Shown piece after piece: positions 28,690 through 34,124 of a stretch of DNA of 58,878 nucleotides (position 1 is the first letter of the stretch; the number at the start of each line of letters is the position of its first letter). Source of the stretch: Bacteroidia bacterium (GTDB lineage: Bacteria > Bacteroidota > Bacteroidia > M30B66); assembly GCA_046302715.1 (NCBI GenBank), contig JBKCHQ010000174.1, positions 1 to 58,878 of the forward strand. The letters are read 5' to 3'. Both the position numbers and the translations under genes were made by a program. The notes beneath the pieces are model-generated. The model did no database searches. It saw only the letters and a program-made list of their open reading frames with translations, and was not told where the DNA came from.

Positions 28690-30564
28690 ATGTACACTAT
28701 TCAGGAGCTTAATGCCAAATTAGTTGGCGAATTGCGTGAGATTGCCACAGAACTAAAAGTATCAAAAGCAGATTCACTAAAAAAGAATGAACTGATTTAC
28801 AAAATACTTGACGAACAAGCTATAAAACCGGAGCTTGCTCAAAAATTAAGAAAGCCTCAGGCTGCGGTACCCCCAAGGCCAGCTGCTAAAAATGAGCCTC
28901 ATGTAATGGCCAAAAAAGAAGCGCCATCCGAGGTTAAGCCAGAAACCGCCGATAATAAAAGCAAACGCCCTCGAAAAGCTACAGCTCAGCAAGAAATTAA
29001 AGTCGAAGAAAAGCTGCAAACAGCTCCTGCATCGACCTCGCCAGCAGGAAATAAAGATCCCAGAAAAAGGAGAAGCCCCGAACAGGAACGCCCAAAGGCT
29101 CTTAGCACTGAAAGTGCAAGCGCCGAAAATACGACAGGTACTCCTCCCCATAAAAGAGTGGTTTATGGAAAAGGCGATGGCAGTTTATCGAACTACCAGC
29201 CACCTGCACAGCCCGAAACACCGGCTACACCTCCAACGCCACCCGCGCAGCAGGTTGCACAACAGCCTTCCACGTCAGGCGTGGTGGCGCCTCAGCAACA
29301 ACATCAGCACCGCGAACGCCAAAATTGGCAAGGTAACCGCGAACGCCAGCAAGGCTTTCAGCGTAATCCCAACATGCCCAATCGCCCAAATCAGGGAAAT
29401 GTAACTCCCGCCGAGTCGAACCCCTTGAACGAGGCATTTAATAACGAAGATCTTTTGGTGAGCACCGAGGGAGTTATTGAACTTATTCCCGAAGGATATG
29501 GCTTTCTGCGTTCATCCGACTATAATTACCTGCCCTCACCCGATGATGTGTATGTATCGCAATCGCAGATTAAGCAATACGGCTTAAAAACCGGCGATAC
29601 CGTTAACTGTTCGGTTAGAGCACCGCGCGAAGGAGAAAAGTACTTCCCTCTGGTTAAAATCAATCTTATCAACGGACGCGAGCCGGCTTCGGTACGCGAC
29701 CGAGTTCCATTTGATTATTTAACTCCCATGTTCCCCGATGAGAAATTAAAACTCACCGGACACAAACACGGAACTTTGTCGACCCGTGTAATGGATCTTT
29801 TCACCCCCATCGGTAAAGGTCAACGAGGTCTCATCGTAGCGCAACCCAAAACGGGTAAAACGGTATTGCTTAAGGAAGTGGCCAATGCCATTGCCGATAA
29901 CCATCCTGAAGTTTACCTCATTATCCTTTTGGTGGATGAACGTCCCGAAGAAGTTACCGATATGGCCCGCAGCGTGCGAGCCGAAGTAGTTTCCTCAACG
30001 TTTGATGAACCTGCCGACCGCCACGTGAAAATAGCCAACATCGTTCTCGAGAAAGCAAAGCGCATGGTTGAATGTGGGCACGATGTGGTAATTCTGCTCG
30101 ACTCCATTACACGACTTGCTCGCGCCTACAATACGGTTCAGCCTGCATCAGGAAAAGTACTTTCGGGCGGTGTGGATGCCAATGCCTTGCATAAGCCTAA
30201 ACGTTTCTTCGGTGCAGCTCGTAAAATCGAAAATGGCGGATCACTTACCATTCTTGCCACAGCGCTTATTGATACCGGCTCTAAGATGGATGAGGTAATC
30301 TTCGAAGAATTTAAAGGAACCGGAAACATGGAGTTGCAGCTCGACCGCAAACTGGCCAATAAGCGAATATTCCCTGCCATCGACTTAATTGCATCTTCTA
30401 CACGACGCGACGATCTCTTGGTGGACAAAGAGACCCTCCAACGTATGTGGATTTTACGCAATCATTTAGGCGATATGAATACGGTCGAGGTGATGGAATT
30501 CATCCGCAGCCGCATGAACAATACCAGTAGTAATGAGGAATTCCTCATCACGATGAACAGCTAA
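28690..30564 (+). CDS. rho: Transcription termination factor Rho with long N-terminal insertion
   Basis: [41 protein letters not shown]. Confidence 0.97.
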
Positions 30565-31208: not shown

Positions 31209-32816
31209 TCACAAATCCCTGCCACACATTTGGCATTTTTGCTGTTTACAGGCACATGATGCGCATAGCCCATACATGCCGCTGCTGGTGCCCTTACCAC
31301 ACGATCCACACACCCCAATATCGTCGGTTACCGATCGGTCCTTGTGCGACGAACAAAGAAATCCACCGCCCCAGTTCTGGTTTGGGCACTCCACTTTAAA
31401 CTTAAAACGCTTCCCTTTTTCGTCGTAATGCTTGGGTTTTCCGAGAGCCCGGTCACCTTTATAGGATTGCTCCGTGGCCAGTTTTCCATTTTCATGATAG
31501 GTGCGCCACAGTCCATCGCGCAAGCCCATGGCATACGTTTCCTCACGAATCAAAACGCCCTCTTCGTTCCAGTAACGACATAGGCCATTGAGAATGCCGG
31601 CTCCCGACATTAACTCATCATCAACTGCAAAGGACAAGTGACTTGGGATACTCGAATCCACATGTGCAAACGAAAGTTCTTTGAGCAACACGCCCTGTGC
31701 ATTCCAATGCCGGTAGGTGTCAACCATAAAATCGTTTCGAAAAACTGCAGTACTAGCGGTTTTTCCATTTGCATAATAGCTGGTATACGGTCCGTCTAAA
31801 AGCAGTTTAGGTTCGGCTCGCTGGTTCGTCCACAAAAAGCTGTATTCCGATTCCAAGCCCCCAGCGCGATAAAAAGTACTGCGATGATAGCGATTGGTAT
31901 CTTGGCTATTGCGCACTGTACGCGAACGAAGCGCTGTTTTATCGCTGTCGAAATATCGTTTTTCTTCGCCCATTACACGTCCATCGAGGAGGCTCAATTC
32001 GACATAGCCTTGATCGAACATCGGGAAATTCCCGGCAATGGAACCGCTGCTGTTAAATACCGTTTGCTTGCCATCCTCGTCCCAGGCCTCCACAATTTTA
32101 TCCAATTGATTTGCGCGCACTATCCGAGCCTTCATCCGACCGGTTTTGGGATAATACAAATGAAGCGAGTCGTAATAGCTCGACCATTGGTTATCGGTAA
32201 AATGCACCTCACTCAGGAGACCTTCTTCGGTATAATGCTTCGACCAACCTATGTTTACACCATTTACGTAGTTAACCTCGAATTTGGGTTTTCCTGAAGG
32301 GAACTCACCATGCCAAACACCATGCGGAAATTCTTTCTCATCCAATTCGCCCGTGGTTTTTACTGCTCCGTTTTCGTAATACAACGATACCACTCCACAA
32401 ATCTGACCCTTGCAATAATTCACTTCCAATGCAACCTGGCCATTGAGATGATACTTTCGCCAAGTTCCAACACGCATAAAATCTACCATTTGCCCTTCGG
32501 CCCACAGCACGCTGTCGATTTTCGGGTTACCCAGTTTGTCGGCAAAAAAGAACTCCCGATGCGTAAGCCAGCCCTTCACCTTACCGGTTCTAAATTGCGT
32601 GGTGCCGTGGGGAAAGTTGAAGCGAGCGCGGCTGCCTTCGGTCCAGTAGGTGCCGTTAAATGCCTCGTCGTGTTCGTAATGATTGGCATAATAGGCAATT
32701 TGCAGGAGCGAGTCCTCCCCTTGTTTTTTAAGCCAGAATTTGGTTTGAGCCGATGCTTGTTGGGCAAAAACTGAAGAAAACAGAATACAAAAAACAACTT
32801 TAATAAAACGCCGCAT
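31209..32816 (-). CDS. Exported MORN-variant (YwqK-like) repeat protein with C-terminal Cys-rich CRIPT-like domain
   Basis: Signal peptide (ASA|Q); repeats such as GTWRKYHLNGQ, YYENGAVK, GPYTSYYANGK, DGLWRTYHENGK; terminal CSSH..CGSC..CASC..CQMC. Confidence 0.85.
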   Translation of the reverse strand: MRRFIKVVFCILFSSVFAQQASAQTKFWLKKQGEDSLLQIAYYANHYEHDEAFNGTYWTEGSRARFNFPHGTTQFRTGKVKGWLTHREFFFADKLGNPKIDSVLWAEGQMVDFMRVGTWRKYHLNGQVALEVNYCKGQICGVVSLYYENGAVKTTGELDEKEFPHGVWHGEFPSGKPKFEVNYVNGVNIGWSKHYTEEGLLSEVHFTDNQWSSYYDSLHLYYPKTGRMKARIVRANQLDKIVEAWDEDGKQTVFNSSGSIAGNFPMFDQGYVELSLLDGRVMGEEKRYFDSDKTALRSRTVRNSQDTNRYHRSTFYRAGGLESEYSFLWTNQRAEPKLLLDGPYTSYYANGKTASTAVFRNDFMVDTYRHWNAQGVLLKELSFAHVDSSIPSHLSFAVDDELMSGAGILNGLCRYWNEEGVLIREETYAMGLRDGLWRTYHENGKLATEQSYKGDRALGKPKHYDEKGKRFKFKVECPNQNWGGGFLCSSHKDRSVTDDIGVCGSCGKGTSSGMYGLCASCACKQQKCQMCGRDL

Positions 32817-33641: not shown

Positions 33642-34124
33642 ATGAAATTTGTCATTTTACTTTCTTTTTCCATAGTTTTATTGTTTCCTACCTCATGCAC
33701 CTCCGTAAAGCAAATAGGTAAAATAAATATGATATCGAATCGCAATGTAGATTCAAATTTAGATTACGGATTAATTGCAAGCTATTCTGGCGGAACTAAA
33801 CGTGAGTTAAAAAAATCAAGAGCACTCACGGTTGAAGATGCTGTTGACCAGACGGTTCGAAAAGTACCAGGAGGTGAATTTCTTATGAATTCAAAAGTAT
33901 ATTTAGTTAAGAATAAATATTTTGCGGTAGAAGGCGATGTTTGGGGTGTTAAAGCAAACGCAACTTACAGGGGCTTTAAAGTTGGAGATAAGGTTATTAT
34001 TGATGGAGTATTAAATACCATTGCAACCATAAAGTCTCTTAAGGATGACAAAACGTGTTTTATTGAAAGAATTAATGGTTTAATAGAGGAAATTAAATAT
34101 GACCGCTTGAGTAAAGCCGAATAA
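33642..34124 (+). CDS. Hypothetical lipoprotein
   Basis: 160 aa; signal ending PTS-C; visibly AT-richer than flanking genes; C-terminal FKVGDKV (KOW/SH3-like). Confidence 0.75.
   Translation: MKFVILLSFSIVLLFPTSCTSVKQIGKINMISNRNVDSNLDYGLIASYSGGTKRELKKSRALTVEDAVDQTVRKVPGGEFLMNSKVYLVKNKYFAVEGDVWGVKANATYRGFKVGDKVIIDGVLNTIATIKSLKDDKTCFIERINGLIEEIKYDRLSKAE

Follow-up and report, generated by a model that had tools for sequence, protein, structure and literature searches.

A probable CRIPT-like two-zinc module at the C-terminus of a signal peptide-bearing MORN-repeat protein from a Bacteroidia bacterium

Introduction

CRIPT (PF10235; PDB 7DVQ, chain 0) is a eukaryotic protein of roughly 100 amino acids that is found in the cytosol and the nucleus. 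Its CXXC motifs have been called a zinc finger (PMC11874965), and two zinc centers, formed by Cys3, 6, 83, and 86 and by Cys58, 61, 73, and 76, are described for the 7DVQ structure (PMC10676203). Through this module, CRIPT is wedged into the minor spliceosome between SF3b and RNF113A (PMC11874965). CRIPT is also a human disease gene (Rothmund-Thomson-like syndrome), and known missense variants lie at the zinc-binding cysteines (PMC10676203, PMC11874965). Little is understood about where CRIPT came from and what its zinc module does. Here, we describe the cysteine-rich tail of a 535-amino acid protein from a Bacteroidia bacterium (assembly GCA_046302715.1), encoded on contig JBKCHQ010000174.1. 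Positions 1 to 58,878 of the contig were analyzed, and this whole stretch of 58,878 nucleotides is referred to as the window. Going by alignments and a predicted structure, the tail is most aptly seen as a compact bacterial form of the CRIPT-type two-zinc module that belongs to a sizeable unnamed family.

Like the tail, CRIPT has eight ligands in four knuckles, with spacings of x11 and x6 between knuckles 2, 3, and 4. CRIPT and the bacterial family also have in common A-x-K-x-G between knuckles 3 and 4 and a glycine after knuckle 4; the tail keeps the A and K (ACKQQK) and has Q instead of G. In contrast, knuckles 1 and 2 of CRIPT are separated by a conserved linker of about 50 residues (PDPW…ENK…); the tail and each of the 87 aligned members of its family have 11 residues there. 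CRIPT ends in a PDZ-binding C-terminus, …Y[KR]Q[ST][SAN]-x (…KQSSV-like), whereas the tail ends in …CGRDL and sits on a MORN scaffold with a signal peptide for export. The tail further differs in its CxxH knuckle 1, its two extra cysteines, its DIG and TSSG motifs, and a Pfam Cript score below the cut-off of 25.5 bits.

Apart from CRIPT, the only solved chains that matched the tail model in an unfiltered search are those of the N-terminal zinc module of RBM22, a large RNA-binding splicing factor, and presumably of its yeast counterpart Ecm2/Slt11. RBM22 gives a poorer fit than CRIPT, and its sequence match has an E-value of 0.16 over 19 residues. The double zinc ribbons (DZR_2, PF18912; DZR, PF12773; Zn_ribbon_6, PF07191/YfgJ) likewise have four CxxC knuckles within about 45-65 residues, but their spacing is variable and that of the bacterial family is fixed in a 44-residue core. 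They also score below the cut-off in 48 whole family proteins (those listed range over 17.0-20.7 bits, with cut-offs of 25-27.3) and do not match the window tail at E ≤ 1. The protein's body clearly belongs to the MORN_2, or YwqK-like, proteins (PF07661), none of which is described as carrying this tail in the literature searched. No published bacterial CRIPT-like domain was found in that literature either.

Results

A conserved cysteine-rich tail

The last 59 residues of the protein (CPNQNWGGGFLCSSHKDRSVTDDIGVCGSCGKGTSSGMYGLCASCACKQQKCQMCGRDL) contain nine cysteines, at tail positions 1, 12, 27, 30, 42, 45, 47, 52, and 55, and one histidine at position 15, in the pattern CSSH-x11-CGSC-x11-CASC-ACKQQK-CQMCG. 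A first-pass annotation of this DNA had reported these residues and their spacing, and they were reproduced exactly by translation; the human CRIPT string that it quoted agrees with the sequence of PDB chain 7dvq_0. In 17 full-length orthologs, eight of the nine tail cysteines and the histidine are invariant, and Cys523 is present in 16. Distant orthologs are 69.5% identical in the tail and 42% identical in the body. Judged from these alignments, the pattern is conserved under constraint and is no chance run of cysteines.

The tail belongs to a bacterial family

When 1.84 billion cluster representatives were scored with a profile of five tails, 99 proteins were found at E ≤ 0.001. One of these, P0060, was a false match to a leucine-rich-repeat protein, and the other 98 are real. 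The exact 44-residue core, C-x2-[C/H]-x11-C-x2-C-x11-C-x2-C-x6-C-x2-C, is found in 82 of the 98 representatives, the remaining 16 being fragments or length variants. It is also found in the window tail and four close homologs, and these 87 sequences, all with the exact core, form the alignment A3. Six of the eight ligand columns in A3 are invariant; another has Cys in 63 members and His in 24, and the last has Cys in 86 and Ser in one. The conserved residues that are not ligands are D12, I/V13, G14, T23, S25, G26 (TSSG), A35, K37, and Q42. The window tail agrees with the family definition, having the exact core and the DIG and TSSG motifs. Its membership is robust, since a profile made only from the 74 members that fall outside the subgroup of the tail gave the window protein 67 bits (E 1.1e-13 over the whole library).

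Whole proteins of 48 of the 98 members, with the longer ones chosen, were scanned with Pfam. Several fusion partners were found; a search for such bacterial partners had been proposed in the first-pass annotation. A chagasin-type inhibitor domain (I42) is present in six proteins, and three (P0023, P0038, and P0105) contain regions 2 and 4 of an extracytoplasmic function (ECF) sigma factor followed by a membrane segment. The other partners include an EamA/DMT transporter, an alpha/beta hydrolase, and HEAT repeats, as well as MORN_2 in two representatives, P0009 and P0014. The combination of the module with MORN_2 was seen only in these two and in the Bacteroidia family of the window. Five of the six Inhibitor_I42 fusions (P0064, P0066, P0080, P0085, P0088, and P0106) have the module immediately after the signal peptide, whereas P0088 has it at an internal position (residues 246-289) that adjoins the inhibitor domain. 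Tandem copies of the module in one chain occur in P0010, P0019, P0022, P0024, P0026, P0055, and P0078.

Segments upstream of the module were judged by a crude hydrophobicity test in the 87 exact-core proteins. A signal or membrane segment was found in 54, and in 31 of these the module directly follows an N-terminal one. No such segment was found in 33; 18 of them, mostly tiny proteins, begin with the module, and several of the others are borderline cases or truncated. By this test, the family appears to be mostly exported or membrane-anchored. The module sits at the termini of proteins that otherwise differ widely, and other members are tiny and consist of little else.

The few members named by their source come from Planctomycetota and one Parcubacteria metagenome-assembled genome (MAG) and are labeled ‘hypothetical protein’ or by their partner domain. 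The family has no name in Pfam, NCBIfam, or the literature searched. NCBIfam gave nothing useful for the tail, PADLOC gave no match, and PHROGs gave only weak matches, to phrog_15796 (function not assigned). In the homolog search, the second domain of P0022 returned only itself, the A3 profile returned three known members, and the tail region returned only five close homologs.

Sequence profiles connect the family to CRIPT

When the A3 profile was compared with 177,635 distinct PDB sequences, CRIPT (7dvq_0) was the first match, with an E-value of 0.0013. Knuckles 2-4 aligned without gaps on CRIPT residues 54-90, and a weak second stretch placed knuckle 1 on residues 2-9. The identical knuckle spacing and shared A.K that had been noticed earlier were thus recovered, with CGSC-x11-CASC-x6-CQMC running ungapped along CRIPT. 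The solved double zinc ribbon YfgJ (2jne) reached an E-value of 0.39 in the same comparison.

A set of CRIPT sequences was collected by scanning metagenome contigs with a degenerate pattern for the knuckle 3-4 motif of 7dvq_0. The 44 loci found gave 17 distinct full-length open reading frames (ORFs) of 95-118 residues, all of which match Pfam Cript (best E 6e-39). Twelve of the 17 also match DUF2039 (PF10217), two match DZR, and two match DZR_2. In hhalign, A3 aligned to the 17 CRIPT sequences with a probability of 94.6% and a score of 40.7 over 46 columns, with knuckles 2-4 in register. The five MORN tails gave 90.6%, and the single tail gave 73.7% over 18 columns. The controls consisted of one run with the reversed profile, which scored 12.7, and 100 shuffles in each of three designs. 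Shuffling all columns gave a mean score of 10.1 (maximum 18.1), permuting the other occupied columns with the ligand columns fixed gave 18.7 (maximum 33.8), and permuting only within the segments between ligands gave 25.3 (maximum 37.2). Since no shuffle in any design reached the real score, the non-cysteine columns add real signal, amounting to roughly 3 to 5 standard deviations. The profile comparison with CRIPT proposed at the outset therefore turned out in favor of a relationship, for the family and for the five MORN tails.

Pfam Cript matched 14 of the 48 whole family proteins at E ≤ 0.01 and was the best zinc family in all 14. Two of the 48 exceeded its cut-off, namely P0056 (28.6 bits) and the second module of P0022 (26.2 bits), which also carries a precomputed PF10235 label in the protein collection. 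The first-pass annotation had suggested an hmmscan of the tail against this family; the link held for these two relatives, and the tail itself stayed below the threshold. The first copy of the module in P0022, a protein from the Parcubacteria MAG, is typical of the family and the second passes the Cript cut-off. On its sequence, P0022 appears to be a natural bridge between the bacterial family and Cript.

The 87 module segments matched several Pfam families at E ≤ 1: DZR_2 (65 segments), Cript (55), DUF2039 (49), Zn_ribbon_6 (34), Zn_ribbon_15 (23), and DZR (15). Pfam alone therefore fails to separate Cript from generic double zinc ribbons. DUF2039 did not match the window tail at E ≤ 1 but, given its weak matches to the bacterial modules and to CRIPT, appears to be a third branch of this type of module. 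Examples of Pfam DZR_2 were found in three of 61 genomes searched. In the ESM Atlas, the first named family for the tail was Cript, at rank 12 with a score of 0.83, which is treated as a lead only.

The predicted fold matches CRIPT

A model of the tail was built by AlphaFold2 using A3 as the alignment. Its mean predicted local distance difference test score (pLDDT) was 96.4, with 58 of 59 residues at 90 or above, and its predicted template modeling score was 0.81. A Foldseek search of 350,542 PDB chains placed CRIPT (7dvq_0) first with a probability of 0.92 and a template modeling (TM) score of 0.58, and the second match had a probability of 0.25. VIA-align superposed residues 11-59 of the model on CRIPT 2-90, with a Z-score of 4.9 and a root-mean-square deviation (rmsd) of 1.7 Å over 49 residues. 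This places knuckle 1 on the first CxxC of CRIPT and the remainder on residues 54-90. The training structures of the AlphaFold version used predate the CRIPT entry of 2021, so the agreement in fold should not stem from memorizing that entry.

An unfiltered VIA search of 48,161 representative chains returned seven chains at Z ≥ 2, with CRIPT first. The other six all came from spliceosome entries (Z 2.5-3.9, rmsd 2.4-2.6 Å, 52-56 residues). Chains 8ro0_O and 8ro1_O are RBM22 by their PDB names, and the matching yeast spliceosome chains are presumably Ecm2/Slt11, the RBM22 counterpart. No solved double zinc ribbon was among the seven chains, and a family not listed there is not thereby excluded. 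The first-pass annotation had supposed that CSSH takes the place of the first CxxC of CRIPT and had named AlphaFold and Foldseek as a check on the whole idea. All four knuckles superpose in the predicted model, and CRIPT was first by Foldseek and VIA alike. The nested pairing of knuckles 1 with 4 and 2 with 3, as in CRIPT, is suggested by the predicted model only.

Remote homology or convergence

Several observations weigh against a relationship with CRIPT or against the picture of the tail built on it. Pfam Cript gave the tail alone an E-value of 0.37 and 11.9 bits, and 9.6 bits in a genome-wide scan. Neither phmmer with the tail nor hmmsearch with the five-tail profile found CRIPT among the PDB sequences at E ≤ 10. 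The weak DZR_2 matches outnumber those of Cript with similar best E-values, and the second PDB sequence match of A3 was Fn14, a disulfide-rich TNFR module, at E 0.0031. The Foldseek E-value for CRIPT was 0.25, and the Z-score of 4.9 is modest in absolute terms. The within-segment shuffles reached hhalign probabilities of up to 93%, showing that this probability is inflated for profiles with such cysteine spacing, and the knuckle 3-4 columns of the CRIPT set are invariant by construction because the set was selected by that motif. The TSSG and DIG signatures of the family are not shared with CRIPT. In ortholog L018, Cys523 is replaced by Gly and Cys477 is kept. Lastly, the flanks of the relatives share no gene with the 24-40 kb region of the window, so there is no conserved neighborhood and no functional clue from it.

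Despite the modest Z-score, the predicted domain is tiny, its fit is tight, and its list of matches is short and specific. In terms of fold and profile, the similarity of the tail to CRIPT is supported as a remote homology, in which borderline sequence statistics are joined by a fold match, and the first-pass claim of a bacterial relative of the CRIPT two-zinc domain stands in this form. The alignments and the model make a CRIPT-like two-zinc fold the likely identity of the tail.

Another possible explanation is that the tail is a generic pair of zinc ribbons without shared ancestry, with a likeness to CRIPT that comes from packing four CxxC knuckles around two zincs. Such convergence could account for the weak matches of DZR_2, Zn_ribbon_6, Zn_ribbon_15, and DZR to the family, for the cross-matches of DZR and DZR_2 to the CRIPT set, and for the weight of the cysteine columns, since shuffles with fixed ligands still scored 18.7-25.3 of 40.7. 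The absence of TSSG and DIG from CRIPT and the about four-fold difference in the length of the knuckle 1-2 linker would also fit. However, 0 of 100 shuffles in either of these designs attained the real score, and the two groups share a consensus outside the cysteines (A, K, and G in the segment joining knuckle 3 to knuckle 4, then a further G past knuckle 4). CRIPT was also first in the PDB sequences, in Foldseek, and in the VIA-wide search, whereas YfgJ came only to E 0.39 by sequence. We consider convergence unlikely.

A docking or a sensing role

A role as an adaptor or docking element rather than as an enzyme is suggested for the CRIPT-like module because it is small and rigid, lies at the end of the chain, and occurs on unrelated, mostly extracytoplasmic domains. 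A docking function of the tail is proposed tentatively and with some doubt. The main functional rival keeps the same fold and makes it a zinc- or redox-sensing switch that would alter the activity of the attached domain, either by folding only in the presence of available zinc or by losing its zinc and becoming oxidized under stress. In P0023, P0038, and P0105, the module follows the membrane segment of the ECF sigma factor fusion, which is a typical position for a sensor. Zinc-thiolate sites are intrinsically redox-sensitive, and a study by Xu from 2022, going by its title alone, reportedly ties redox signaling to the cysteines of CRIPT. Against this, regulators make up a minority of the fusion partners, the others including protease inhibitors, a hydrolase, a transporter, and MORN scaffolds, and the window gene has no regulatory neighbor that is conserved across its relatives. 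We consider a sensing role unlikely.

Zinc or disulfides

Because of the alignments and the superposition on CRIPT, the equivalent metal sites of the tail would be C488, H491, C528, and C531 for the first zinc and C503, C506, C518, and C521 for the second. Several features of the family bear on whether the cysteines hold metal or form disulfides, a question that the first-pass annotation raised for a domain outside the cytoplasm. At one ligand column, 24 of the 87 members have His instead of Cys. The number of cysteines is odd in 35 of 87, and eight of the His-type members have seven. The knuckle signatures CPxC and CxxCG are common in the family. VKOR, DsbB, DSBA, and Thioredoxin_4 had no match at E ≤ 1e-3 in the source genome, which is 100% complete by marker genes. 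At the same threshold, VKOR, DsbB, and Thioredoxin_4 were found in none of 25 genomes of the same taxonomic family, and the control genomes expected to have them were positive. From these searches, the Bacteroidia lineage may be one without canonical periplasmic disulfide formation, and other oxidases are conceivable. Zinc is favored over disulfides by the exchange of Cys and His, the odd cysteine counts, the lack of Dsb and VKOR matches, the CPxC and CxxCG signatures, and the versions without a signal peptide. The tail most likely binds two zinc ions, as far as its sequence can tell.

Two cysteines of the tail, Cys477 and Cys523, lie outside the knuckles. A cysteine corresponding to Cys477 is present in all 13 family members that have the second extra cysteine, and Cys523 is absent from the 74 members outside the subgroup of the tail. 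This co-occurrence makes a disulfide or a packed contact between the two possible. A disulfide is less certain because one ortholog lost Cys523 alone and because no Dsb enzymes were seen.

A disulfide-knotted extracytoplasmic module without metal, which would suit the signal peptide, the hydrophobic segment upstream in 54 of 87 members, the Fn14 match, and the disulfide-like covariation of the extra cysteine pair (13/13), is very improbable given the Cys/His interchange at ligand column 4 that breaks an all-cysteine pairing rule, the odd cysteine counts, the four regular CxxC knuckles with their CPxC and CxxCG signatures, the 18 members with an N-terminal module and no signal peptide, the confident model that fits a structure whose eight cysteines hold two zincs, and the lack of DsbB or VKOR matches in the source genome and in 25 of 25 family genomes and of DSBA matches in the source genome.

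The gene, its signal peptide, and the MORN body

The features of the gene are listed in Table 1. The fusion of the tail to a MORN scaffold noted by the first-pass annotation was confirmed by Pfam, which matched MORN_2 to five stretches of the protein at E 3.2e-23 and 79.5 bits against a cut-off of 29.6. In the full-length AlphaFold model, the protein is all-beta from residue 77 to 464 at low confidence (pLDDT 61.8), and the signal peptide is modeled as a helix over residues 2-21. Across 17 orthologs, Gln24 is invariant and Ala23 is nearly so. This fits the Q-rule for signal peptidase I substrates of Bacteroidetes, as given in excerpts of PMC5837995 and PMC10653852. Export of the 535-amino acid protein through the Sec pathway is suggested by the signal peptide only. 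One source labels a close homolog ‘antitoxin component YwqK’. Two metatranscriptome runs from two studies each contained one short contig inside the gene, one of 279 nucleotides that is identical (32032-32310) and one of 171 nucleotides with one differing base (31422-31592); these are a weak hint of transcription and not proof.

Table 1. Positions in the window of the gene, its domains, and the knuckles of the tail
Feature	Position	Strand	Basis
Whole gene, 535-aa MORN_2-repeat protein, probably exported by its signal peptide, with Cys-rich tail	31209..32816	minus	ORF list and translation
Stop codon of the 535-aa gene	31209-31211	minus	translation
Signal peptide, residues 1-23 (MRRFIKVVFCILFSSVFAQQASA), probable cleavage before Gln24	32748..32816	minus	hydrophobic N-terminus
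Body, residues 24-476, MORN_2 (YwqK-like) beta-hairpin repeats	31389..32747	minus	Pfam
Cys pair C135/C140 in body, YC-x-G-x2-CG	32397..32414	minus	invariant in 17/17 orthologs
Tail, residues 477-535, probable CRIPT-like module, eight putative metal ligands	31212..31388	minus	translation, family membership, AlphaFold model
Extra Cys C477, start of CP-x-x-NWG extension	31386..31388	minus	invariant in 17 orthologs
Knuckle 1, C488-S-S-H491 (CxxH variant), putative zinc site A with knuckle 4	31344..31355	minus	ligand column C 63, H 24 of 87
Knuckle 2, C503-G-S-C506, putative zinc site B with knuckle 3	31299..31310	minus	invariant 87/87; aligned to CRIPT Cys58/61
Knuckle 3, C518-A-S-C521, putative zinc site B	31254..31265	minus	87/87 and 86/87; aligned to CRIPT Cys73/76
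Extra Cys C523, CAC after knuckle 3	31248..31250	minus	16/17 orthologs
Knuckle 4, C528-Q-M-C531, putative zinc site A	31224..31235	minus	invariant 87/87; aligned to CRIPT Cys83/86

Distribution and neighborhood

The tail is present in a single copy in the source genome and was found in 19 of 25 genomes of the same taxonomic family, which makes up its whole order. The body was found in 20 of the 25; all matches that are not ended by a contig edge reach residue 528-535, and no ortholog without the tail was seen among these genomes. In a class sample of 401 genomes, the tail was restricted to its own family apart from three chance matches, one of which was the Cys-rich C-terminus of a rhodanese-type protein in genome L019. 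A wide profile found nothing at E ≤ 1e-4 in 400 other genomes of a phylum sample. A search for related loci returned 14, all in Bacteroidia MAGs, and the named relatives are uncultured Bacteroidia MAGs. The DNA of the gene was found mainly in freshwater metagenomes.

Structures and sequences from viruses were also compared. Against a viral structure library, the tail model matched a protein of Hyperionvirus without a characterized function (E 1.5e-3, probability 1.00, rmsd 1.3 Å, 42 columns, 36% identity), as well as Gp228 of Bacillus phage G (E 0.041) and orphan proteins of Satyrvirus and Tupanvirus. In the ESM Atlas, three unnamed Uroviricota clusters of 61-71 amino acids were at the top for P0002 and P0083. 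The tail had no tblastn match in phage records. A scan of viral contigs with a degenerate pattern gave three loci, which are the same chance match with an internal stop codon and were rejected.

The neighbors of the gene in the window are housekeeping genes, encoding Rho, a DUF4199 protein, an HTH_3 regulator, and aspartate-semialdehyde dehydrogenase. The Rho termination factor (28690-30564, plus strand, 624 amino acids) contains about 210 residues of low-complexity sequence rich in Pro, Gln, and Ala between Rho_N (6-47) and the RNA-binding domain (260-332). A 160-amino acid ORF at 33642-34124 (plus strand) has no Pfam match at E ≤ 0.001. No tRNA genes or Rfam families at gathering score were found in the 58.9 kb window.

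Discussion

The best overall explanation for the tail, to which we assign a probability of roughly 65%, is a compact CRIPT-type two-zinc module; the zinc-stabilized docking role that goes with it is the less certain part. Its eight ligands would lie in four knuckles (C488/H491, C503/C506, C518/C521, and C528/C531), and two Zn2+ ions would be held in nested sites like those of human CRIPT, one built from the outer knuckles 1 and 4 and one from the inner knuckles 2 and 3. This compact form has an 11-residue spacer between the first two knuckles, against about 50 residues in CRIPT. The module would be carried through the Sec pathway on the MORN_2 beta-hairpin scaffold, and zinc would probably be taken up in the periplasm, seemingly without the DsbA/DsbB/VKOR oxidizing machinery. 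In its final place, the module could act as a rigid, metal-stabilized docking knob by which the MORN scaffold is held to a further component of the envelope.

A broader proposal is that the zinc module of CRIPT and RBM22 and the abundant, mostly extracytoplasmic bacterial module, which would extend to giant viruses and a jumbo phage, make up one superfamily. The compact form would be ancestral, and CRIPT would have arisen from it by insertion of the linker. The bacterial form would be a genuine extracytoplasmic zinc-thiolate domain, which is rare, and would be tolerated where Dsb oxidases are absent. This proposal is speculative and, taken as a whole, rather unlikely.

The bacterial domain defined here, which has had no name, turns up repeatedly on exported protease inhibitors, ECF sigma factor fusions, transporters, and MORN scaffolds. 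It raises the question of whether a nearly all-cysteine zinc site can exist outside the cytoplasm and whether this is linked to the absence of Dsb enzymes. A bacterial family that probably has the same fold would provide simple, compact model proteins for the CRIPT module and would bear on the origin of a spliceosome-associated fold.

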